This document shows, in pieces, positions 6,601 through 55,724 of a DNA stretch of 64,000 bases. The position numbers and the translations under genes are program-made. Origin of the DNA: Sphyrna mokarran. Its lineage: Eukaryota. The notes under the pieces were generated by a model. It had not been told where the DNA came from. It did not search any database and saw only the letters and a program-made list of their open reading frames with translations. Each line of letters starts with the position of its first letter. Position 1 is the first letter of the stretch. The stretch lies in NCBI GenBank assembly GCA_024679065.1, contig JAGIQG010000015.1, positions 28,210,001 to 28,274,000 of the forward strand, read 5' to 3'.

Positions 6601-7801
6601 TTGAAAAGCGGATTATCCAGCATTAATATCAGTCTGCTGACCCCTGTAAAGGAATACACCATCGGATTTTTGATTCTACTTTCTGGTTTCTTGTGAAACA
6701 ATTATTTTCTGTGGTAATGAAATTTCTTTTCATTATCTCTGGTTTACTGTATGAATGCCAAAACAGAGAGGGTGCACCCCCCATTTTGAGTGCGTACAAA
6801 ATAAAGTAACCCTGTGATTTTACCCTATCTGCAGTTTGCTATAGGATCATTATATAAATTGAACCACACCAAAACCAAGGGGTTGGGAGAATACACCACT
6901 GCTTAAAAAGGGGGAAATAAAATCATAAACACCTTTCTGTTCACCGACGGTTGGTGCGATCAAAGCCCTCCTATCGGTAGCAATATAGAGAAAGAAATTG
7001 AACCATACTGTCACTTTGTCCTAATCTATTCTGGTATATAGGGTACGGCTACTGCTGTACTAAGAAAACAGCATATATACACCATTATACTTATATGCAT
7101 TTTAAGTAATCGCACTTGTATTATTGCATAGATAATTTTCGGTCATTTGACTGGGAAACCAGAGAAAAGCATAGAACTGGGTCTTGAATTACGCACTTGA
7201 ACGGATATCACACAAAGTCAAAACTGCAAGTTTTCTATGTTGAATCGCTGCCAAGTTTACTCGAGAAAATTAACTGAAATAATGCATGCCAGCACTTTCT
7301 TTAATTGAATAGTTTTAATCAACCCGATTACTCCATTGCATTCATTTGCTGAATGCCATTCCGTCTGGTGGTTCCACTCAGATGTTTTTGAAATCCACTC
7401 CAGGTTGCTTCGTGTTACATTTGTTTTGGCACAAAGCCATCTATCTGTAAAGCTAGCGACTGAAAAGTGTTGGAACAAATGACGTGATCAGTGTTTCTGA
7501 AGTTCAGAAAAAGCAACTGAAGCACTAACATATATTTGAAAGAGTAAGTCTATGAGCATTTCAACCATTATACATTCCCTCAATTTGAAACTTTATATTT
7601 GGAGACTAGTGCTTTAAATTGGAGGGGAAAAAAACTTGTGGTCAAAATCTCCTAGAAACCGAAGTAAACAAATTGCAGAATCGGCGGCAATCCCGCCTCC
7701 CGCACCTCTACCCCCCCCCCCCCCCCCCCACGTCCCCCAGCCACCACCACCACATTGGGGATTACGTGCGACCGATTTGGAGTACAATAATCATATTCGG
7801 G

Positions 7802-7910
7802 ATGACAAATATGTTAGACTTGTTGAACGATGAGACTCTTAGAGGAAAACCTCATTACAATCAAAAGATGCTAGTTCATTTCACATTCGGCGATCTACTC
7901 AGAGCTAAAG
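7802..7910 (+). other. Candidate first coding exon of an unidentified gene (MTNMLDLLNDETLRGKPHYNQKMLVHFTFGDLLRAK)
   Basis: ATG in a locally CpG-enriched non-repeat region; open frame ends at a strong donor AAG|gtaaga (phase 1). No homology recognised. Confidence 0.35.
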
Positions 7911-8194
7911 GTAAGACAGTATTTTCATTCTTACCGAATATTGTGAAAACAAAGATAATTGTAAATGATTTAAGACGATCGGCCGTCCCTTTCTTTCGCT
8001 TGTCTTTTTTTATGCTCATCCACTTTTGGATTTAAAAAAAACACGTACACAATGCGTGTCGAAAAACTATTTTTAATGACATTTATCTCAAACAGACGGA
8101 AATACAGAGGGAATATCAACCCTTAAGTTGAATAGAGCTTTGGTCAGACTCCAGAGAACTGCGTTTAGTTTTGGACAGGGGGCAGAAGGCAAGA

Positions 8195-8372
8195 CATAAA
8201 AGCGAAATACTGTGACCCCGCAAATCTGAAATAAAAACGAAGCGCTGGAAATACTCAGCTGGTCTGACAGGATCTGTATATTGAGTTATATTGGACTAAA
8301 ATGTTTACTCCGTTTCCTTCTCCAGACATGCTGTCGAACCTACTTTCCAGTGTTTCCGGCACTTTCTTTTTT
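8195..8372. mobile_element. Degenerate hairpin repeat, probably Penelope pseudo-LTR derived (family B)
   Basis: gctggaaatactcagctggtctgacaggatctg is followed by inverted-like cagacatgctgtcgaacctactttccagtgtttcc; related copies at 14420, 44560/45165 and 62912. Confidence 0.5.
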
Positions 8373-8590
8373 TACCTCAGCAAGGGCATGATGAACTTGC
8401 GGAGTGGGTACAGTACAAATTTACTAGAATGTTATCATGAGATAAAGGGTTAAATTTTGAGGACATTTTCCATAAAATTAGCTTTTACACCCTTGAGGTT
8501 AGCATATGTAGAGAAGATCCAACAGATGACAAAGGGATTTGATACAGTAGATATTTCTTTGCTGGGAGATCTCCAATAAAAGAGCATAAT

Positions 8591-11508: not shown

Positions 11509-11564
11509 GAACATTTCAAATGAATTAGATTTAAAATGTGCAGCTTGAAATTATCTATAATTAC

Positions 11565-12216
11565 ATAGAACATAGAACATTACAGCGCAGAACAGGCCCT
11601 TCGGCCTTTGATGTTGTGCCGACCAATTAGGAAAAAGCAATGACCCTCTAACCTAAACCATTCTCTTTTCATCCATAAACTTATCTACTAACCTCTTAAA
11701 CGCCACCAAACTTGGCGCATCTACAACTGCAGCAGGCAGGGCATTCCATTCCCTTACCACCCTCTGGGTAAAGAACCTACCTCTGACATCTGTCCTATAA
11801 CTACCACCCCTTAATTTAAAGCTATGTCCCCTCGTGCTAGCTTTCTCCATCATAGGAAAAAGGCTATCACTGTCCACCCTATCTAAACCTCTAATCATCT
11901 TATATGTTTAAATAAGGTCTCCTCTTAGCTGCCTTCTTTCTAACGAAAACAACCTCAAATCCCTCAGCCTCTCTTCATAAGACCTGCCTTCCATACCAGG
12001 CAACATCCTGGTAAACCTCCTCTGTACCCTCTCCAATGCCTCTACATCTTTCTTATAATGTGGGGACCAGAACTGTACACAATACTCCAAGTGCAGCCGC
12101 ACTGGAGTTTTGTACAGTTGCAACATGACGTTGTGGCTCCGAAATTCAATCCCCCTACCAATAAAAGCTAAGACTGTGTATGCCTTCTTAACAACCTTAT
12201 CGACTTGATTGCCAAC
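11565..12216 (-). mobile_element. Young CR1/HER1-like LINE, 5'-truncated (subfamily A)
   Basis: LEYCVQFWSPHYKKDVEALERVQRRFTRM; (atgttct)n tail; near-identical to 33310-33985 and 52040-52685. Confidence 0.95.
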
Positions 12217-13183
12217 TAATTTTCATATTTGATCTCAGCTTTATAATTTGAGAGGTTATTTTCCAATAATTTTTCATTCTTTATATTGATTATAATGAAA
12301 TAAAAATAACAGCTTGACTTAAAATGTGTTTGACGTTCAACTGCCCCCAAGGGCAACTAAAGATGGACAATAAATGCCAGCCAGCAATGCCCATGTCATA
12401 GGAATGTATTTTTAAAAATATCTCAATGTTAACTTTATTATTTTCAAAAATTGAATGCTCAGTATATTATGTTTGCTGGATTTTCCTTACTTTAGGACTG
12501 TTTCTAATCATTTTATGGATCTCTAGATGCTGTATAATTGGATACATTTTGCCAGAAGCTATACTATTTATGGTCCAAATATTTCTCTTCCATCATGATA
12601 CCACAACAATGGTATGGTATCCAGGAGATAGTAATCCTAAATTGAAAAGGAAGTAACAGGTTAAAATTAGTCGTTATGTTTATTTGAAATGCTTTCAATG
12701 TTTTGATGTAAACTGTCAAATGGAAAGCACAAACAGCAAACACTTGGTAGTGCATCTGATGAATTTGAAGAGTGTTGGTGATTCAGATAATGTTGCTTAG
12801 TGACAAGCAAGAATGTAAACTTTTAATCCATGCATCAGGGCCATTTCTTTCTGACATGTAAGCAAAATCCCAGGTTTCACGTATTGAAAGACCAAGAAAA
12901 GTAGGAAAGGGCCGAGGGGCAGCTTGACCTAGAAAGGATAGAAAGGGTGATTGGCAACAGGTTGCTATGTTGCCTAAACAGAACAATTTTTGACGAGGTA
13001 GGAGTGAAGAAGCAGATACTGTGTTAAGTGTGGTTTCCAGCCTTCATGTCACTGACGATCTTTTCTCTGTACACCCTGATTTTATCTACTGCTTAGAGCT
13101 CCATCTCGCTGAGATCCTAGACATACGTTAGTACTCCAGTAGTTCTATTCTCTACCTTTATTGTGAACCATTTTTTCCTGTAG

Positions 13184-16744: not shown

Positions 16745-16885
16745 AGAGAATCGTGTTAAAAAATTATTTAAATTTAATGACTTAACCATCAGACAACTAC
16801 TAGAATCATGTTAAAAGTCATTAAAATTTAATAATTTTTTACAAGTCAGATAAATTATATCAGAATCATGTTAAAAGATTAGATT
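16745..16885 (+). repeat. Degenerate tandem repeat, ~55-60-bp unit x3
   Basis: agaatc(g/a)tgttaaaa recurs at ~16747, 16802 and 16862. Confidence 0.6.
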
Positions 16886-18968: not shown

Positions 18969-19377
18969 CCGGCGGGCTGTTGGGTGGAAGATGGCTTAGA
19001 AGGGAACCACAGGACATGGTGTTTCCAAGCATCTGTTGCCCTTGTCCCTCTGGGTGGTAGAGATTGCAGGTTTCAAAGGTACTGATGATAGACCCTTAGT
19101 GAGTTATTGCAGTGTATCTTATAGGTAATTCTCCTTCAACTGAGTCGGCATCACAAACTAATATCCATATTCCACCAACACTTTTTAAATTTTGAATGAG
19201 ATTAGCAATATAATAATGATCAGATAATCATCTTTGTGATATTGATTGAGGGCTAGATATTGGCAAGGATACTGGGGATAACACCTATGCTCTTTGAAGT
19301 AATTCCATGGGATTTTTTATTTCCATCTCAGTTTAAAATTGCATCCGAAAGATGTTATCTGTGATGATATAATCTCC

Positions 19378-20428
19378 GTAAGAATTTAGCAACACCAATT
19401 ATTAATCCAACCGATTTATTTGATAGTAAAAAAGCGAGCTTTCAACACTCTTGTGTCTTCCTCAGGCATGTGCAGTCTTCTGGTCTGCAATAGCACACAT
19501 CAGCACAGACAGTCAGAGATTGCTGATTAGAATGCGAATCCTTACATCTAACCTGCTATTCAAGTGTTAAAGTGGCTACCAATGTGTGTGAAGGGGATCC
19601 TGAGCATTGTTAGAGAATTGTGTATTTTCTCCAGACAGCACAGTAAGTGAGGTTTTTTGCTAACCCAGGCAAGTTACGGGGGTTACAGATAGTGTGTCAT
19701 GAAGCCAAGATCTCTGTTAAGACCGTCCTCATGTGTGTGGAGCTTGGCTATCAGTCTCTGTTCAGCGACTCTGCGCTGTCGTGTATCACGAAAGCCCCCT
19801 TGAAGAACATTTACACCGCAGGTCGGAGGCCGAATGCCCATGACTGCTGAAGTGTTCGCCCACAGGAAGGGAACAATCACCAGGCAAAACAGTTTCCCTT
19901 CCTGTGGGCGAACACTTCAGCAGTCATGGGCATTCGGCCTCCGACCTGCGGGTAATGTTCTTCAAGGGGGCTTTCGTGATACACGACAGCGCAGAGTCAC
20001 TGAACAGAGACTGATAGCCAAGCTCCACACACATGAGGACGGTCTTAACAGGGATCTTGGCTTCAACGACACTATCTGTAACCCCTGTAACTTGCCTGGG
20101 TTAGCAAAAAACCTCACTTACTGTGCTGTCTGGAGAAAATACACAATTCTCTAACAATGCTCAGGATCCCCTTCACACACATTGTTAGCCACTTTAACAC
20201 TTGAATAGCAGGTTAGATGTAAGGATTCGCATTCTAATCAGCAATCTCTGACTGTCTGTGCTGATGTGTGCTATTGCAGACCAGAACACTGCACTTGCCT
20301 GAGGAAGACACGGGAGTGTTGAAAGCTCGCTTTTTTACTATCAAATAAATCGGTTGGATTAATAATTGGTGTTGCTAAATTCTTACTGAGTTCTTACCAC
20401 CCCAATCCAACGCCGGCATCTTTACATC
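19378..20428. mobile_element. Penelope-like element: ~495-bp inverted arms with GIY-YIG C-terminus and pseudo-LTR, plus a 3' tail; 14-bp TSD
   Basis: Arms 19378-19873 and 19894-20386 are near-perfect reverse complements. They encode PVGEHFSSHGHSASDLRV / NVLQGGFRDTRQRRVAEQRLIAKLHTHEDGLNRDLGF. ATGATATAATCTCC occurs at 19364-19377 and 20429-20442. Confidence 0.9.
20297..20330 (+). ncRNA. Minimal hammerhead-ribozyme-like motif; mirror copy on the minus strand at ~19434-19467
   Basis: CTGAGGA-A-GACAC-GGGA-GTGTT-GAAA-GCTC: both core boxes, a 5-bp stem II and a palindromic AGCT stem-III region. Stem I is weak. Confidence 0.55.
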
Positions 20429-22004
20429 ATGATATAATCTCCCAGAGATCTGTACTGAAGTGTCAGCCTTGGTTTTTATGCATTCAAGGGGATTTGAACC
20501 CAGGATCTTGTGGTTCAGAGGTGATAGTGCTCCAACTGACCCACAGCTAACATAAATATTAGATGCTACTGTCACTATATGCCCATGGTGTAGGGGTTGA
20601 AAGTTTATGATGGTGGGTAAGATACTGATCAAGTGGATGGAGTTGAGCTTCTTGGATGTTTAAGTTGCACTCATCCAGTCAAGTGATGGGTATTCTATCG
20701 TACTCCTTACTTGTGCTTTATAGATGGTGAACAGGCTTTGGGAAGTCAGAAAGTGAGTTATGTACCAATCCCAGTCCCTTGACATACTATTGTGGCCACA
20801 GTATTTACATGGCTGGTCCACTTAAGTTCCTGGTCAATGTTAACCCTCCAAGTGGTTAATAGTGGAGGATGCAGCAATGTACTACTATTGAACGTCAAGG
20901 GGAAATGGTTAGATTATTTCTTATTCCTGACATGAATTTTATTTGCCACTTACCAGCCAAAGCCTCAATCACGCCCAGATCTTGCTGCTTAGGACATGGA
21001 CTGTTTCAGTATCTAAGCAGTTGTAAGTGGTACTAAACATTGTGCAACATGAACAAACTTCTCACTTCTAGCCTTATATTGGAGAGGAGTAATTGATGAA
21101 GCAAAGATGGTTACACCAAGGACAATATCTTGAGGAATTCCTACAGCAATGCCCTGGGGCTGGAATTTTTGGCTCCAACAATCACAAACGCCTTCTTTGG
21201 TGCTGGGTATAACTCCAACCAGAGGAGAGATTTTCCTCCTATTCTCATTGATTTCAATTTTGCTAGGGCTCCTTGATGCTACCCTCAGTCAGATACTGCC
21301 AAGATATCAAAGGAAGGTATTCTCACCCCCACCTCTGCAATTCAACTCTTTTGTCCATATTTCAGCCAGGACTATAATGAGGTCTGGACCTGAGTGGTCC
21401 TGGCTAAACTCAAACTGAGAATAGATGAGCTGTTTGTTATTGAGCAAGTGCTGCATGATAATACTGTTGGCAATACCTTCCATCACTTTGCTCATGATTG
21501 AGAATGGACTGTTGGGGAGGTAATTGGCTGGATTGGATTTGTCCTGCTTTTTAAGGACACAATAGATCTTTACACTTTCCATATTGTCAGGTACATATCC
21601 ATATTGTAACTGTACAGGAATAATTGGCTATAGGTGTAACTGGTTCTGCAGCACAAATCTTTCTTTGTACAGGTGTCAGGGCCCATAATACTTACTGTGG
21701 GTATCCAATGCCTTTAGCCTTCTTTAAATATCACAAGCACTGAATCAAACTGTCTAAAAATTAGCAGCTATGATTGTGGGGATCCCTAGAGAAGGCCAAA
21801 GTGGATCATCCTCTAAAAGTTTGTTGCAAATGTTTCAGCATTATCTTTTGCACCGATATGCTGGGCTCCCTCATTATTGAGGATAAGGATGTTTATGGAG
21901 CCTTTGGTTAGTTGTTTAACTGTCTACCACCATTTCACAGCTGGATATGGTAGGGTAGGATTACAGACCTTTAATCTGATCTGTTAATTGTGGGATTTTT
22001 GTTT

Positions 22005-25959: not shown

Positions 25960-27245
25960 ACTTGATTCATGAAAAGGAAGTCGTACTTGATGAATTTACT
26001 GGATTTTTATGAAGATGTGACTGGTGCAGTAGACAGAGGGGAACCGGTGATTATGGTGTTTTTAGATTTCCAGAAGGTGTTCAATAAGGTGCCTCACAAA
26101 AGGTTGCTGCAGAAGGTTAGCTTATACAGAGTTGTGGGTAAAGTGCTAGTGTGGATTGGGGATTGGCTATCTAACAGGAAGCAGAGAGTTGGAATAAATA
26201 GGTGCTTTTCTGGTTGGCAGTTGGTGACTAGTAGAGTGCCGCAGGGATCACTGCTGGGGCCTCAACTGTTACCATATACATAAACGATCTGGAGGAGAGG
26301 GCTGAGTGTAGGATAACAAAATTTGCTGATGACACAAAGATGAGTGAAAAAGCGAACTGCATGGAGAACGTGGAAAGTCTGCAGAGAGATTTGGATAGGC
26401 TGAGTCATTGGGCGAGGACCTGGCAGATGGAGTATAACGTTAACAAAAATGAGGTTATCACTTTGGAAGAAATAATACTAGGATGGAATATTATTTAAAT
26501 GGTGAAAAGTTGCAGCATGCTACTGTGCAGAGGGATCTGGGTGTCCTTGTGCATGAATCGCAAAAACTCAGTCTGCAGGTGCAGCAGGTGATCAGCAAAT
26601 GGAATATTGGCCTTTATCACGTGTGGGATAGAATATAGAAGCAGGGAGGTCTTGCTGCAACTGTATAAGGCACTGATGAGGCCGCAACTGGAGTACTGTG
26701 CGCAGTTTTGGTCCCCTTATTTGCAAAAGGATATATTGGTCTTGGAGGGAGTACAGAGAAGGTTCAACAGGCTGATGCTGGAGATGAGGGGGATAGCTTA
26801 TGAGGAGAGATTGAATAGACTGGGCCTGTACTCGTTAGAGTTTAGAAGGCTGAAGGGAGATCTTATAGAGGCTTACAAGATAATGAAGAGGGTAAATAGA
26901 GTGGAGATAGATTCTTTCCACTTAAAAAAGAAACCAGAACTAAAGGGCATAGCCTCAAAATAAGGGGAGTGGGCAGTTTAGAACAGAATTGAGGAGGAAC
27001 TTCTTCTCTCAGAGAGTGGTGAATCTCTGGAATTCTCTGCCTGTTGAAGTGGTGGAGGCTACCTCGTTGAATATGTTTAAGTCACGGGTAAATAGATTTC
27101 TGATCGATAAGGGAATTCAGGGTTATGGGGAGCAGGCGGGTAAGTGGGACTGATCCACTTCAGATTAGCCATGATCTTATTGAATGGCGGGGCAGGCTGT
27201 AAGGTCTAGATAGCCTATTCCTCCTATTTCTTATGTTCTTATGTA
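25960..27245 (+). mobile_element. CR1-like LINE (RT to 3' end), frameshifted
   Basis: LDFQKVFNKVPH, VPQGSLLGP, KFADDTK, LEYCAQFWSP; ttcttatgttcttatg tail. Confidence 0.92.
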
Positions 27246-27335
27246 CTCTTATATGACGCAATTTTGATGAGATTAATTAACTCACAGTGGGACTAATACA
27301 TGAGTGATTTGTTGAAAGGTCCATGGAATCTGTTG

Positions 27336-27645
27336 TAAGAACATAAGAAATAGGAGCAGGAGTAGACCATCTAGCCCTTCGAGCCTGCCCTGCTATCTAA
27401 CAAGATCATGGCTGATTTGAAGTGGATCAGGTCCACTTTCCTGCTTTTTCCCCAGAACCCTTAACTCCCTTGTCTATCAGAAACTTATCTACCCATGACT
27501 TAAATATATTCAGTGAGGTAGCCTCCACTACTTCAATGGGCAGAAAATTCCAGAGACTCACCACCCTTTGAGTGAAGAAGTTCCTCCTCAACTCCGATTT
27601 AAACTGTCCCCTCCTTATTTTGAGACTGTGCCCTCTAGTTCTGCT
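27336..27645 (-). mobile_element. CR1-like LINE 3' fragment, same subfamily as 25960-27245
   Basis: RTRGHSLKIRRGQFKSELRRNFFTQRVV; taagaacataagaa tail. Confidence 0.9.
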
Positions 27646-29461
27646 TTTGGTTGCACCTGTCATTTAACTCTGTAGTGTGATGTTTATTACTGCAGTTCAT
27701 CTGTTGATTCACATGTACATTAAACTTAACCTGAATGTTAGAAATATCAGGTTTACGTACTGTAAATTGTTTTAACTTTTTGCTTGTTCAAAACCCATGG
27801 AATCTTGTGGCTTTATTCCCTGAGTAGGTGTCTTAATTCTCAACCTTTATCTACGTTAAACAAAATGTTATTGGTTCCTAACCATATCTCCCCCCATATC
27901 CTTGATGTGACCAAGGCTCATAACAAACTTCTCATTAAACTAAGGTTGGTCTACTAGTTTGGTGATAATGTAAAGTATATGGTGAACCATTAATTGTCAA
28001 CCAAAGGGAAATTAACTCTGTGAATTTAACTTGGAGCCAAAAATGCAATGCACACAATCAGGAACCAATCTATATCATTGGACACTGACACATAATGTGC
28101 AACCATTGCACGTACATAATGTGATACAATGCAGATTGGGAAACCAATTTAGTACTGAAGACCGACAGACCATGACTATGGGAACAAAAATTATATTACA
28201 GGTTGGATTTCCAAAATCTGGCTGTTTGAAATCCAAAAACCGGACATTTTTAAAAAATATTCCATTTGATATTCAGTTAAATTAAATTTTGATAAATTTG
28301 GGGCAATTTGGCTAGGCTATAGTTTTAGTGGTGTCCTGGACTAGTTATTGGATTTTCTGTTTTGTTCAGTGGTAGACCAGTCTAGTTCTTGTGCTCCAAA
28401 TCAACGCAAATGACTCTCAACTCCACCTGACTTGGCTGTCTGAAATCAGAGAAAATTTTAAATTCAGCATGGCCTTAATTCAGTGGGATTTTGATGTCCA
28501 ACCTACATTTATATATTGCACTTGTACACTGTGTAAATGAACATTAGAAGGCCCCTGATGAAAGCAAGCATATTGCACCAATGATATCCCAGGCTGTCCA
28601 CTCGTAGGGTTGATGCCTGGAAATAATTCGGAGCCTTAAATAAAATCAGCCGTGACATTATTGCACCACCTTGATTTGCTGGCAGCAGAGTATATGGTAA
28701 AGTTGTTGTAGAACTGAATATTCCCAAAACTAGAGAAGTAACTTTTGTTTCAATTCAATAAATAAAGGATTATGAAATATTTGATAATTTTTATGCAGTT
28801 AAAGGGATTGTGTGCAGTTTGATGACTTCCAGTCTCCATTGAGAAAACTCACACATTTCTTTGTAAAAAAACTTCCAAGATGTGTGCATTTTTCTTTTTT
28901 AAGTTGTTACTTTGCATTCATCCTTCAACTTGTAATTTTTAAAATGTTGAACTATATTCAACCTTGTTGAATATTTTTCATTAATTTAGGCAAGTAAAGG
29001 TTGTGCACCACACCAACCTTCATTTTTGTTGCTTCATACAATTTGTCTAGTTGTCCCAAAGAGTGGCCATTAAACAAGTTGCACTATATAGTTTTAAAAT
29101 GGAAGCGAATAAATGTTTGAAGGTAAAAAGACAAGGAAGGATATGAGGAAAGAGCAAAGAAATTAGACAAAACAAACAACTCTTTCAGGGAACTGCTGAT
29201 GGTGGTGCCAAGAATTGAATGACCTTTTCTGTATTGTAAAATTCTATGATTTCCAGTTTTGGAGCATTGATTTTTTTCTTTTTTTCCACTCCTTCCCCAG
29301 CAAAAGAATGCTTGGAGGCAGGACTATGCCAGCATTAATGCAAGTATCACACTCTGTTAAACTTCTAGGGTATACAGTTTTAACAGAGTGCTTTCACTTA
29401 CATCATACCATCTGGAATAATCCCACCTTCCCATTCTGCTGCTTTCTCACTCTCCATGCAG

Positions 29462-32448: not shown

Positions 32449-33985
32449 GTATTCTCTGGGAGGCAAGAGAGGCAATTGCAGAGCCTCTGGCTCTGATCTT
32501 CAGGTCGTCGTTACGGGTATAGTGCCGGAAGACTGGAGGATAGCGAATGTGGTCCCATTGTTCAAGAAGGGGAAGAGAGACTTTCCGGGGCATTATAGGC
32601 CGGTGAATCTTACTTCTATTGTGGGCAAAGTATTGGAGAGAATTATTAGGGATAGGATTTATAGTTATTTAGAGAGAAATGAATTGATTGGGGATAGTCA
32701 GCATGGTTTTGTGAAGGGTAGGTCGTGCCTTACTAACCTTATTGAGTTTTTTGAAAAAGTGACCAAAGAGCTGGATGGGGGTAAGGCAGTTGATGTGGTA
32801 TATATCGACTTTAGTAAGGCGTTCGATAAGGAGGCCCTTGGAAGGCTTCTGCAGAAAATGCAGATGTATGGGATTGAGGGTGATTTAGCTAATTGGATTA
32901 GGAATTGGCTAGCAGATAGAAGACAGAGGGTAGTGGTTGATGGAAGATATTCATCGTGGAGTTCGGTTACTAGTGGAGTACCTCAGGGATCTGTTTTGGG
33001 GCCCCTGCTGTTTGTAATTTTTATAAATGATCTGGATGAGGGTATTGAAGGATGGATTAGTAAATTTGCGGATGACACCAAAGTCGGAGGAGTGGTAGAT
33101 AGTGAAGAGGGGTGTTATAGTTTGCAGAGAGACTTGGACAAGTTGCAGAGCTGGGCCCAGAGGTGGCAAATGGAGTTTAATGTGGAAAAGTGTGAGGTAA
33201 TTCACTTTGGCAGGAATAACAAATGTGTAGAGTATAGGGCTAATGGTAGGACTCTCAATGGTGTTGATGAACAGAGGGATCTTAGTGTATATGTTAATAG
33301 ATCCCTGAAAGTTGGCAATCAAGTCGATAAGGTTGTTAAGAAGGCATATGGAGTCTTAGCTTTTATTGGTAGGGGGATTGAATTTCGGAGCCGCAACGTC
33401 ATGTTGCAACTGTACAAAACTCTAGTGCAGCCACACTTGGAGTATTGTGTGCAGTTCTGGTCCCCACATTATAAGAAAGATGTGGAGGCATTGGAGAGGG
33501 TACAGAGGAGGTTTACCAGGATGTTGCCTGGTATGGAGGGCAGATCTTATGAAGAGAGGCTGAGGGATTTGAGGTTGTTTTCATTAGAAAGGAGGCGGCT
33601 AAGAGGGGACCTTATTGAAACATATAAGATGATTAGAGGTTTAGATAGGGTGGACAGTGATAGCCTTTTTCCTAGGATGGAGAAAGCTAGCACGAGGGGA
33701 CATAGCTTTAAATTAAGGGGTGGTGGTTATAGGACAGATGTCAGACGTAGGGTTCTTTACCCAGAGGGTGGTAAGGGTATGGAATGGTAAGGGTATGGAA
33801 TGCCCTGTCTGCGTCAGTTGTAGATGCGCCAAGTTTGGTGGCGTTTAAGAGGTTAGTAGATAAGTTTATGGACGAAAAGGGAATGGTTTAGGTTAGAGGG
33901 TCATTGCTTTTTCCTAATTGGTCGGTGCAACATCGAAGGCCAAAGGGCCTGTTCTGCGCTGTAATGTTCTATGTTCTATGTTCTA
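32449..33985 (+). mobile_element. Young CR1/HER1-like LINE (subfamily A) with a long uninterrupted RT frame
   Basis: 422-codon ORF with YRPVNLTS, QHGF, DFSKAFDK, GVPQGSVLGP and FADDTK; (atgttct)n tail. Confidence 0.97.
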
Positions 33986-36959: not shown

Positions 36960-39240
36960 GTTGAGAAGAGATAACACACAATTAGAACTGCATTGCATTA
37001 AGATAGCAGGTGGTCAGATGTTCTCCAAGTTGGACATAAATCACATCTATCTTTAGCTTGAATTGAATGAGTCTTCCCAGAAATATGTGATGAACAACAC
37101 ACACCAGGGGTTACACAGATATATTCGATTGCTTTTCAGGGTCTTGTCAGCTTGCACCATATTCCAAATCATCACTTCAAGGGCTACCCAGTGTGACAGT
37201 GTACTTACATTGTGTTCTTGTCATGGCGGCTTCGGAACAAGAACACCGGCAAATTTAGATGAAGGTTTGCAGTGATTCTCAAGAGCTGGAGTACATTTGA
37301 AGAGGAAAGAATGTGCCTTTCAAGCAGCTGAAGTGACCAATTTAGGCTATTGTGTAGATGGAAAAGGGTTACACTCAATTGAGAAAAAATAAAAACTGTC
37401 AAAGAAGCACCAACTCCAAGCAGCACTATGTAGTTATCCTTCTCGAAATAGTAACTTATATAGAAAATTTATCCCAAATTTGGCTTCTATACTGGCCTTT
37501 TGCAAACCCTATTATGAAAATACCAAAAGTGTTCTTGGGATCGTCCACAAGCAGAGGCTTTTGACAAAATTAAATGTCAGCTATTGCCATCTAACTTATT
37601 GGCCCATTTTGATCCCAAGAAAGAACTCATGCTGTCATGTGATGTTTCACCATACAGTGTTGGGGCAATACTTGCACATCACTGGAAAGACAGGACCGAA
37701 AAGCATATCGCATATGCACCCACCACCCTTTCAGATTCAAAACAAAGGGATTCTCAAATCGGGGCCATTTTATTTGATGTAAAAGAAATTCTATTAATAT
37801 GTCTATAGCAGATGTTTCATAGTTACTGGCCACAAGCCCTTACTGTGACTATTTAAAGAAGACAAGGTAAGCCCACTCCCACCCCATTCCCTCCTACGGG
37901 ATACAACTTTGGGCCTTATTACTTGCAGTCTATGAGTATCTTCTAGGGCACTGCCCTGGAAAACAGATAGCTAACTGTAGGATCATATACCTTAGTTTAG
38001 ACAAGATTGGGTCTTTTTGGGTGCACTGAGCTGCCTCCTGTTGCCAAAAGCCTGGCTCCTCTACTGCATTAGAACAGGACCCTAATTTTTTTTTTGGAAA
38101 CTCTGCCAGTATCCACAAGGCAGGTTAAGACCTGGACCCAAAAAGATCCAATTTTGTCTAAAATAAGGTATATGATCCTACGCGGTGAATTTGGATGATG
38201 GCCCTCTGAAGAATCGAAACCGTGGCTGGAATTCTGCAACTTCACTTGCAGCTGAGATTCTCTGTCCTGTTGCAGTGAATGAACTGAATTCTCCATTCTC
38301 ACTGGCAGTGATAACAGGATGTGTGACATTGGAGAATCTCGACGCCTACCTAGATAAAACAGATGAGCTTAGTGTCAAAGATGGGAGCATTCTCTGGGGA
38401 TCCCACCCACAGTGCAATATTTGACATTAGCAGAACTATATGATAGCCACCCTTGAGTATCAAAGATGAAAATGCTAGCTAGTAGTTACGTCTAGTGATC
38501 TAACCTCTACTCAGATATTATGGATTTGGTAAGTGGTGCGATTCAAGAGAATCAAAACTCTCTCCCTACATCCTTGGGAATGGCCTGGCAGATTGTGGGT
38601 ATGTGTACATGTGGACTTTGCAGACTGCTTCATGGGTTCCATGTTTTTAATCATGATAGGTGCATACTCCCAAGTAGTTGGAGGTGCATCGCATGGGTTC
38701 CACAAGCTCTCATGCTACAATCGAGAAATTATGATAAAGTTTCTGCATGCATGGAATACCAGAAATACAGATTTCTGATGATGACGCAGCCTTTAACAGC
38801 AGTGATTTCCAGAACTTTTTTGGGTCCAGAACTTTGTGCTCTCCAATAGTATCTGACACATTCAAACAGCATCTTATCCCCAGTTGTCAAATGCAGTGGT
38901 GGAATGGGAGATGCAAATTTTCCAAATTGGCATGAAAAAGCAACCGGTGGCATCCATGGAGACCAAATTGGCATAATGTTTGTTTGCCTAGAGGAGCACA
39001 GCTCACACAACAACAGAAATTGGTCCAATGGAACAACTAATGGGCTGGCAGCTTATACACGACTGAGCCCACTATTTCCAAATCTGACAGGAGGATAGAG
39101 TCCCAGCAAGAAAACCAGAAAATAAATCCCAATTCTGCAAGAGCAGAAAGAACATTTATTTCGGATGATCTGATTCACATGAGAAACTTTGGAGATGGTC
39201 CCTGGGATCATTTTGGAGAAAACAAGACCAGTGCCTTATA
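36960..39240 (+). mobile_element. Decayed Gypsy/Ty3-like LTR retrotransposon pol (RT, RNase H, integrase)
   Basis: GGQMFSKLD, NTHQGLHRYIRLLF, LLAHFDPKKELMLSCDVSPYSVGAILAH and LHPWEWPGRLWVCVHVDFA in Gypsy domain order, with many stops and frameshifts. Confidence 0.85.
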
Positions 39241-51030: not shown

Positions 51031-52039
51031 AGTGACAGAATTGAAGTATCAGTGGGAATATGCAAACCTCCAATCTATCTATGCAACCTTACAGGCACCA
51101 CATGTCCACAGGAATGCTCGAGAGAGAAACTGGGGTCAATATTATTTCCTGCATCTTCTATTCTGCTGTGAGAATACATACAAGTGAAAATATTGATCTT
51201 CAGGAAACTATTAAGTAACTTGACCCAAAGATACCATGCAGATGACTCATCTAAGCATATTTACTGCTGGTTCTTGCCAAGCCCTTGGACAATCTTGCAT
51301 CTTTCATTACTTACATGCATGCCCATACTCCAAAAACAACATAGAATTGAAACAATTGGCAGACTAATATCTTAGAAAGATTTCATGTACAAATTATTAT
51401 GCATCATGCAGATAGGTTTTGTTGCAATCAGTTACTGACTCAAAAGATGAACTTCTGGTTTGTTGCATTTTTCACAGTACGTGCTTATTCACTTTATGGC
51501 ATCTCATGACCACTTCTTTGCTTGCAAAAGCAAATATGCTTAATTCAGTAAACAGGCCTGAACTTGAGGAAGATCAGAAACTTCAAGCACTGAGGTTTCT
51601 TCAAGTACCTTATCTACGAGAGCTTATAGGAAGTAAGGACGGTGAAGCGAGAGATCTGATCATATATGATGCTATCTATTCCCGATAGGCATGAATTGCT
51701 TGAATGCTCAGAATATTTTTTAAAAAATGGACGCGTTAAAATAAATGTCCTTGAAGTAGTCCCTGCAATTTTCTTTCATTGGATTAAATGGAAAATTATA
51801 TTTTGCACATCAAGTTGCTGTCATTTGGAATGTACTGAAAGGACACGGGAAGCAGATTCAATAATAATTTTCAAAAGGGGAAATGAATATAAATTTGAAA
51901 AAGAAAGATTTATGGACTACTATGGATGAAGCAGGTGGGAGTTGAGCTGATTGGAAATCTCTTTCGAAGAGCTGACACAGGCACAATGGACTGAATGGTT
52001 CCTTTCTGTGCTGATTGATTACACAACTACCTTGACTAG

Positions 52040-52686
52040 GCAGTCAAGTCGAGAAGGTTGTTAAGAAGGCATATGGAGTCTTGGCTTTTATTGGTAGGGG
52101 GATTGAATTTCGGAGCCGCAACGTCATGTTGCAACTGTACAAAACTCTAGTGCGGCCGCACTTGGAGTATTGTGTGCAGTTCTGGTCCCCACATTATAAG
52201 AAAGATGTGGAGGCATTGGAGAGGGTACAGAGGAGGTTTACCAGGATGTTGCCTGGTATGGAGGGCAGGTCTTATGAAGAGAGGCTGAGGGATTTGAGGT
52301 TGTTTTCGTTAGAAAGGAGGCGGCTAAGAGGGGACCTAATCGAAACATATAAGATGATTAGAGGTTTAGATAGGGTGGACAGTGATAGCCTTTTTCCTAG
52401 GATGGAGAAAGCTAGCACGAGGGGACACAGCTTTAAATTAAGGGGTGATAGTTATAGGACGGATATCAGAGGTAGGTTCTTTACCCAAAGGGTGGTTCGG
52501 GAGTGGAATGCCCTGCCTGCAGCAGTTGTAGATGCGCCAAGTTTGGTGGCGTTTAAGAGGTTAGTTGATAAGTATATGGAAGAGAAGGGAATGGTTTAGT
52601 TTGGAGGGGCATTGCTTTTTATATTGGTCGGCGCAACATCGAAGGCCGAAGGGCCTGTTCTGTGCTGTAATGTTCTATGTTCTATT
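52040..52686 (+). mobile_element. Young CR1/HER1-like LINE, 5'-truncated (subfamily A)
   Basis: 172-aa ORF nearly identical to the C-terminus encoded by 32449-33985; (atgttct)n tail. Confidence 0.95.
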
Positions 52687-54890: not shown

Positions 54891-55155
54891 GCCTCCTTCA
54901 GCAGCCTCCTCCAGCCTTGTAAACCATTCCCTCCCAAACTGCATGTTCATCTGACCTTTTGTAATCCCCTACCTTTCTTTGACCCACCACTCATAGTCAT
55001 GTCTTCAGTTGGGCTCCATGCACTGAAATTCTCTCCCTAAACTTCTCCACTTCTTAACCTCCATGTCTTCCTTTTAAGACCCTCCTTGACTTATTGCAAT
55101 TTTTAAGGATGGTCATCATATTAGTCTGTTTCAAAACTGCTGGTACTTTCTGTAT

Positions 55156-55345
55156 GTGGAAATGCCGGTATTGGACTGCGGTAAACATAGTAAGAAGTAT
55201 CACAACAGCAGGTTAAAGCCCAACAGGTTTATTTGGTAGCAAAAGCCACTAGCTTTTGGGCTGAAGGGTCAGAGCCTGAAAGCTAGTGGCTTTTGCTACT
55301 GAATAAACCTGATGGATTTTAACCTGGTATTGTGAAACTTCTTAC
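55156..55345. mobile_element. Miniature Penelope-derived hairpin element with a one-sided tail and 14-bp TSD
   Basis: GGTACTTTCTGTAT at 55142-55155 and 55346-55359; inverted arms ~55190-55262 and ~55273-55345; tail 55156-55189 homologous to 20387-20428. Confidence 0.85.
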
Positions 55346-55724
55346 GGTACTTTCTGTATCCATTGACTAGATAATGATTGTCAACACCTCATAAATTTCC
55401 TCCTTAGTGTCTCTTAGCTTTCTTTGATAAATATGTTCCATCCAAGGGGATTAATTGGTTTTCAAATCTTTTAAACCTAATTTAGGACTTTTATCTTTTT
55501 TATTTAAAGATCATTCATTTTGCCCTGCGCTGTGTGTGTATGAAAGAGGTGGCCTTGTGAATACTTGGAGAAAGAAATTATTCAGAATATTAAATTTCCT
55601 CAGTTTCAGGTTCATTTGTTCAAATACTGTAAATATCTTTTACTGTTATGATTTGTCTCTGCAGCAATTCTTCTTTCTAGGCTTCTGTTGCCTCCTTTGA
55701 TTATTGTTAACATATTGCTGCATA

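Follow-up and report, generated by a model that had tools for sequence, protein, structure and literature searches.

The window, by which we mean the whole 64,000-nt stretch of Sphyrna mokarran DNA that was analysed, carries between positions 19364 and 20442 what is almost certainly the product of a single integration event: a 5'-truncated, head-to-head insertion of a Penelope-like element (PLE). This identification follows from the alignment of the two arms, the target site duplication (TSD), the tail, the homology of the coding remnants to known proteins, and the hammerhead matches. As an overall explanation, we consider it very probable that the locus is a dead, non-autonomous head-to-head dimer of the last ~500 nt of the element, for which a fold-back origin is slightly preferred, and still more probable that the insertion has no selected function. 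The features on which the following account draws are these:

19364-19377, plus strand: left copy of the TSD, 14 bp, adjoining the tail-less end; an exact direct repeat of 20429-20442
19378-19874, minus strand: left arm, the 5'-truncated 3' end of a PLE, reading leftwards and without a tail; placed by alignment to the right arm
19686-19872, minus strand: left C-terminal remnant of GIY-YIG, split between two frames (19872-19816 and 19814-19686), with the stop at 19685-19683; placed by homology to P0002 and P0018
19378-19682, minus strand: left-arm 3' UTR or pseudo-LTR (pLTR), 305 nt, with AATAAA at 19420-19415; placed by position
19436-19465, minus strand: left minimal hammerhead-like motif; found by core pattern and descriptor
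19872-19893, plus strand: inversion junction, an element-derived loop of ~17-20 nt; translates as in P0002
19873-20064, plus strand: right GIY-YIG C-terminal remnant, broken near 19894, 19953, and 20065-20068; placed by alignment and translation
19894-20386, plus strand: right arm, a 3' end of the same element that is 5'-truncated and oriented rightwards; placed by alignment
20299-20328, plus strand: right minimal hammerhead-like motif, at a distance of 88 nt to the end of the arm and followed by AATAAA at 20344-20349
20387-20428, plus strand: one-sided PLE tail, 42 nt, unmatched on the left side; the sister insertion has a homologous tail of 34 nt
20429-20442, plus strand: right copy of the TSD, 14 bp, an exact repeat of the left copy
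55142-55359, no strand assigned: sister insertion, older and of a related family, with a mirrored layout; found by self-comparison of the window

Global alignment of the left arm (19378-19873) with the reverse complement of the right arm (19894-20386) gave 484 matches against 8 mismatches and 5 gap columns; its perfect runs measure 101, 98, 73, 56, 52, and 43 bp. The basic alignment leaves a 20-nt loop (19874-19893) between the arms; with one extra T at ~19894 the arms continue to 19874/19892, and the loop is reduced to ~17 nt. The arms are two 5'-truncated 3' ends placed head to head. Each retains only the last ~62-65 codons of the coding region, frameshifted at different positions in the two arms and lacking the GIY and YIG motifs themselves, which were removed by truncation. 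The label of pLTR was assigned by position, with the definition used in PMC2377424 and PMC8557442. The tail is confined to the right side, and ATGATATAATCTCC is present at both 19364-19377 and 20429-20442 as an exact direct repeat, forming the 14-bp TSD. Such a 14-mer would be expected by chance with a probability of 1e-8 per site, or ~2.5e-5 when 50x50 nt of boundary slack is allowed, and the palindrome has unique flanks on both sides. These observations agree with an earlier sequence-only reading of the locus, which had described a near-perfect palindrome with a ~20-nt loop, a 42-nt tail on the right only, a 14-bp TSD, and pLTR 3' ends pointing outward (as the orientation of the arms supports). 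Its attribution of the whole to a single integration event is likewise supported.

The differences between the arms are of two kinds. Three of the 8 mismatches are CpG-type, while CpG columns make up 5.9% of the alignment (P=0.009), an excess that is expected from ageing in methylated genomic DNA. Set against the 8 mismatches, the 5 gap runs represent a high proportion of indels, most of which lie in the right arm; under a fold-back origin, this excess is attributable only to later change or sequencing error. An in silico empty-site search for paralogues spanning the rejoined flanks, conducted within the window, returned none that crossed either junction.

The identity of the element was read from a clean 43-aa piece of the left arm (19814-19686, minus strand), which matched 5 proteins among 12 candidates, as well as 36 proteins at E<=0.001 among 1.84 billion representatives. 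P0002 is 91% identical to this piece and, a little upstream of the stretch that matched, contains a Pfam GIY-YIG domain (PF01541, E 2.3e-5, above cut-off). P0018, an 881-aa protein with both RT and EN, is 64% identical to it over residues 839-880, at its C-terminus, and contains RVT_1 (E 3.8e-10) with DKG and GLNF motifs. Among 12 longer homologues scanned (E<=0.05), RVT_1 was found in 2 and GIY-YIG in 2, with the curated cut-off passed by the RVT_1 of P0018 alone. The Penelope-like origin and GIY-YIG C-terminal remnant proposed from the sequence are borne out by the matches to P0002 and to the C-terminus of P0018. A match of the peptide to GIY-YIG profiles, also anticipated there, was obtained for the homologue P0002 and not for the window's own coding pieces, which matched nothing in Pfam (0/2 and again 0/2). 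A 116-aa mixed-frame query matched 0 of 72 candidates at E<=0.01.

The copy is truncated at a point 3' of any RT, which is known from the relative P0018, and it lacks the RT-EN linker region, the clade motif (CX2-5CxxC) being read in relatives only. A CX4CxxC linker motif is present in P0018, P0009, and P0015 and is garbled in P0007 and P0030; Penelope and Poseidon elements are without it in the account of PMC8557442. By the criteria given in that source, the element would be an EN+ PLE of the Neptune/Nematis type rather than of the Penelope/Poseidon type. Both family and clade assignments rest on the relatives, because the copy has no RT and its own pieces have no Pfam match.

Self-comparison of the window identified a second palindrome (55190-55345), ~35 kb away. 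The TSD of this sister insertion is again 14 bp (55142-55155 and 55346-55359), its 34-nt tail (55156-55189) lies on the left side only, its arms (~55190-55261 and 55272-55345) enclose a loop of ~10 nt, and its tail-less boundary reads TTCTTAC as in the main element. Over its 3' end and tail, the sister can be aligned to the main element; 10 of 72 columns (14%) differ between its two arms, as compared to 8 of 493 (1.6%) there. These comparisons indicate that the sister is older and derived from a related family. None of its 10 arm mismatches is CpG-type, and no CpG is left in either arm. Within the window, an nhmmer profile of the four 3' ends recovered those four ends alone at meaningful E-values. 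Read from the tail side onward, both TSDs start with AT and end with CC (GG beside the tail-less TTCTTAC), a post hoc observation with n=2. The rarity that had been implied for the arrangement does not hold, as the layout is typical in print and the window itself contains another case.

The inversion junction preserves a record of how the two copies meet. The loop (19873-19893, plus strand) encodes TITRQNS, which is found ahead of SLPVGEHF in P0002, and because it reads as P0002 does, the right copy can be taken as ~20 nt longer at its 5' end than the left, with no foreign spacer. The copies overlap by 2 nt of microhomology at 19873-19874, or by 3 nt if 19872 matches the source, a call that depends on the protein sequence of one homologue (P0002).

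We hypothesize that integration began with the GIY-YIG endonuclease cutting both target strands with a 14-nt stagger, after which reverse transcription, with one 3'-OH as its primer, would have begun at the distal start site, at the tail end. The cDNA would have stopped after ~560 nt; its 3' end may then have folded back over a loop of ~17 nt, pairing at the 2-3 nt of microhomology, and been extended on itself, giving rise to the inverted copy. Joining of the other target end at the proximal site, where the stem-loop of the tail has the ...TTCTTAC boundary in its loop, would explain why the tail is found on one side only; repair of the staggered ends would then have produced the TSD, with neutral decay since insertion. 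Self-priming has been suggested for head-to-head Penelope junction palindromes (PMC3846280). For the fold-back step specifically our preference is slight: it is favoured over two independent cDNAs because the arms are nearly equal in 2/2 insertions (with loops of ~17-20 and ~10 nt), which independent truncation does not predict.

Those two cDNAs are the substance of a second explanation, double-ended target-primed reverse transcription, in which a dimeric RT-EN would copy two RNA templates, one from the distal start with the tail and one from the proximal start without it, and the products would be joined by microhomology. The protein of Anolis Poseidon has been described to cleave and extend both strands, to start at two sites between which the tail is located, and to be a predicted dimer (PMC11167929), and this route would account for both the precise tail-less end in the two insertions and the arm-specific indels. 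We nonetheless regard it as unlikely, since independent cDNAs would rarely end within 10-20 nt of each other, yet 2/2 do, and since cDNAs of the same polarity would anneal only at tiny palindromes. Less likely again is a palindrome formed prior to integration by self-priming on an antisense transcript, with a hairpin intermediate resolved asymmetrically by the endonuclease to leave a one-sided tail. This version was put forward for head-to-head Penelope junctions (PMC3846280), the tail has been attributed to EN-mediated resolution (PMC8557442), and short loops are predicted here as well. The in vitro work on Poseidon, however, used a sense template of the pLTR-ORF junction and mapped the starts to the tail boundaries (PMC11167929), and no sequence feature of our locus requires an antisense template.

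The tail is predicted to pair back on 20350-20373, leaving the arm end in the loop. This stem-loop is common to the families of both insertions, with 12 pairs of which 2 are changed on both sides in a comparison of two sequences only; when sequences were folded singly, it did not reach significance (z of -1.19, -1.37, +0.20, and -0.28). Counted from where stem II of the hammerhead begins, the end of the tail is 123 nt away. In Poseidon of Anolis carolinensis (PAc; Frangieh et al. 2024, PMC11167929), the ORF is described to begin at stem II, with reverse transcription starting 111-118 nt into it, and the tail is similarly bounded by two sites in a stem-loop that is AC-rich and lies 3' of the hammerhead. 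An AT-rich target is also held in common. Conversely, PAc belongs to a different clade without the linker Zn-finger, and inverted products are not described in the available part of that source.

This layout has been published, with an inverted truncated copy, a one-sided 30-40-bp tail, a TSD, and opposite-strand hammerheads (PMC8557442, PMC3846280, and PMC4209133). EN+ PLEs of the Neptune/Nematis type, as described by Craig et al. 2021 (PMC8557442), resemble the element in their C-terminal GIY-YIG, 5' truncation, inverted truncated 5' copy, often one-ended tail, and hammerhead near the 3' end. Unlike the elements in that account, the insertion here has no full-length or tandem copy between its inverted ends, such that the palindrome is the whole insert, and its 42-nt tail is slightly above their 30-40 bp. 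Pen2a/Pen2 of Adineta vaga (Arkhipova et al. 2013, PMC3846280) are alike in their inverted pLTRs, head-to-head palindromic junctions, 31-bp tail on one inverted pLTR, TSD, and inferred self-priming. Their TSDs are reported as 8-10 bp, in contrast to 14 bp in both insertions here, and their copies keep a long ORF whereas the present copy does not. PLEs are stated not to be found in birds or mammals (bioRxiv 10.64898/2026.07.22.740005), and the literature searched, in a survey that was not exhaustive, contained no account from cartilaginous fish of PLE insertions that are pure palindromes with 14-bp TSDs. The novel aspects are modest, namely the lack of a full-length copy in the middle and the 14-bp TSDs; the layout itself is already known.

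Other classes of element were considered and rejected. Non-LTR retrozymes (PMC7229834; bioRxiv 10.64898/2026.07.22.740005) share a PLE pLTR origin, a type I hammerhead, and non-autonomy with the locus, but as described they are head-to-tail units with at least 2 sense hammerheads, whereas the arrangement here is inverted, with one hammerhead motif per strand and a coding remnant. A MITE or foldback DNA transposon is at odds with a right arm that ends 42 nt from the TSD and with arms that are the ends of a PLE ORF. As for a miRNA precursor, the Rfam miRNA and sRNA matches reflect the hairpin tip, and all are below the gathering score.

It is possible, although we put it forward tentatively, that Neptune-type elements in this genome routinely leave pure fold-back palindromes whose geometry is fixed (a 14-bp TSD, a target reading AT...CC from the tail side, a one-sided tail, and a loop <~20 nt). 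This geometry is common to both insertions in the window, which belong to two families of differing age. If it were to hold genome-wide, two per 64 kb would correspond to tens of thousands of copies, and these would constitute a large natural record of Penelope integration, in which the cut would be of fixed stagger and probably dimeric and the priming would follow a defined order. Counting such copies could then decide between fold-back, double priming, and an antisense template, and the divergence of the arms would date each copy as LTR pairs do. The PLE transposition cycle is described as unsettled, with its later steps unvalidated (PMC11167929). The single locus is of little weight as a decayed transposon insertion of published layout, but it is a clean specimen in which the TSD, the tail, the two boundary sites, and the junction microhomology of one integration are all readable. 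If palindromes of this kind are common, they may be a source of dsRNA in introns, and would be a nuisance for assembly and for MITE and miRNA predictors.

We also identified the hammerhead-like motif that had been noted in each arm. A loose hammerhead core pattern matched 6 sites in the 64-kb window, while a stricter minimal-hammerhead descriptor matched 2, one per arm and nowhere else, against an expectation of 0.005 per window (200 Markov simulations). The cores (20299-20328 on the plus strand and 19465-19436 on the minus strand) are spaced 834 nt apart, and the motif has an intact core (CUGANGA / GAAA / UH), a bulged base before stem II, a 5-bp stem II, and a palindromic AGCT. Stem I is 2 bp only, with 0 matches if 4 bp are demanded, and the first pair of stem II is G-U; judged by its sequence, the motif is hammerhead-like and degenerate. 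The dual minimal hammerheads described by Cervera and de la Pena 2014 (PMC4209133) are similar in forming a close opposite-strand pair with a bulged base and palindromic 15.2-16.2. The pairs already observed there are ~100-700 bp apart, in Schistosoma, with a first stem II pair that is usually G-C (G10.1-C11.1) and a stem I of 4-5 bp, as opposed to 834 nt, G-U, and 2 bp here; a 2-bp stem I is on record in the same source for a D. virilis variant. Rfam searches of 19200-20600 at E<=10 gave 5 matches, all below the gathering score and none to a hammerhead, and RNAfold of the hammerhead as a monomer gave z values of +0.44 and +1.09.

A read-through transcript is predicted to form a hairpin of ~490 bp (MFE -968 kcal/mol), consistent with the ~500-bp hairpin proposed from the sequence alone. 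The proposal that this RNA is self-processing fares less well. Folding predictions suggest that self-cleavage is unlikely, because in transcripts of either direction the core is paired long-range, the sense hammerhead with its antisense copy, and the probability of stem II is 0.0; the duplex is valued at -66.9 kcal/mol versus about -6 kcal/mol for the hammerhead fold. Each transcript would contain one sense copy only. Minimal hammerheads reportedly depend on the presence of another sense copy, and a lone motif showed no in vitro cleavage (PMC4209133).

The predicted energy and the long perfect runs, together with an AATAAA at the end of the distal arm whichever direction is transcribed, are what could be expected of a working hairpin-RNA locus, in which a ~490-bp dsRNA would be diced or edited to help silence the family and would possibly be trimmed by the hammerhead. 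siRNAs matching Penelope inverted repeats have also been reported in transgenic Drosophila (PMC3681739). A pLTR promoter such as that of Drosophila Penelope (PMC2377424) would, however, presumably fire outward and not through the hairpin. Moreover, the hammerhead is buried, single, and restricted to a 2-bp stem I, no host coding exon was found around the element (250-31450), and the flanking genes are directed away from it, such that we consider a role of this kind very improbable. Long palindromes are prone to read and assembly fold-back artefacts, and the high share of indels between the arms would suit one, but an artefact is scarcely credible given the unique flanks, the direct 14-mer repeat, the one-sided tail, the in-frame loop, the CpG-enriched mismatches, and the older sister with the same layout.

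The element is flanked by a NEMF-like gene ~19 kb away on one side and by a kinase gene ~11 kb away on the other, the two being divergent. A minus-strand exon at ~192 matches the N-terminus of NEMF (E 0.009), and a plus-strand protein kinase gene, which we take to be MOK, begins near a CpG-rich region at 31.0-32.0 kb, with exons at ~31.9, 36.4, 45.6, 46.4, and 53.5 kb. The insertion had been placed inside a putative intron, a claim that we found unsupported: among 328 stop-to-stop frames of at least 36 aa from 250-31450 (those more than half in self-repeats having been dropped), 3 matched Pfam, all of them to LINE domains, and no host coding exon was found. The kinase-exon controls matched Pfam in the same search (2/2). 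For a candidate exon at 7741-7910, no match of use was obtained from the Atlas; the CpG-rich region at 7.0-8.5 kb includes a donor of high strength (7910), and on the minus strand candidate exons lie at 31582-31436 and 29530-29402. Non-coding exons around the element are possible.

In addition to the main element, the Penelope-like palindrome at 19364-20442, a second insertion of this kind is present in the window, together with further inverted repeats, a hairpin and LINE copies:

55142-55359, second palindrome of Penelope-like type, older than the first, with a TSD of 14 bp, a 34-nt tail on the left and arms of ~72 bp
26931-27647, inverted pair, 77% identity, two LINE-like 3' ends lying tail to tail with ~90 nt between
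1494-1815 and 2075-2396, 322-bp inverted repeat, 90% identity, spacer of ~260 nt
37977-38181, short MITE-like element with terminal inverted repeats of ~49 bp at 92%
16757-16841, imperfect AT-rich hairpin with a short direct repeat close by
11563-12217, 32450-33981 and 52036-52685, three LINE copies

The truncation point of the older, sister insertion falls within the hammerhead. Its target-site duplication (TSD; 55142-55155) has the same length as that of the main element (19364-19377), and both, when read from the tail side, have AT at the start and CC at the end. Moreover, tail bases of the main element align with the first two TSD bases of the sister insertion, an alignment that, judging from the sequence, could reflect priming microhomology. 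The sister insertion is probably intronic, since it lies downstream of the kinase exon at 53.5 kb. In the homologous protein P0001, the endonuclease C-terminus is present twice in direct tandem, which is what partial-tandem Penelope-like copies would give.

The inverted pair at 26931-27647 is not Penelope-like. The 322-bp inverted repeat is probably either a foldback element or a short repeat present in two copies. The family to which the three LINE copies belong is young, as they are 92-93% identical and the one at 32450-33790 still has an open frame of 446 aa.

Host genes and exon candidates were located as follows:

121-192, minus, NEMF-like gene, its first coding exon, within a CpG-rich region
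~31.9, 36.4, 45.6, 46.4 and 53.5 kb (range 31.9-53.6 kb), plus, CMGC-type protein kinase exons
7000-8500, CpG-rich region holding an open exon candidate with a strong donor (7741-7910, plus)
31582-31436 and 29530-29402, minus, candidate exons whose splice signals are good

The kinase resembles MOK. Searches of Pfam and the Atlas returned no match for the candidate at 7741-7910, which may be a non-coding or upstream exon. The minus-strand candidates head away from the kinase promoter and might belong to a divergent non-coding transcript, one that could reach the main element.
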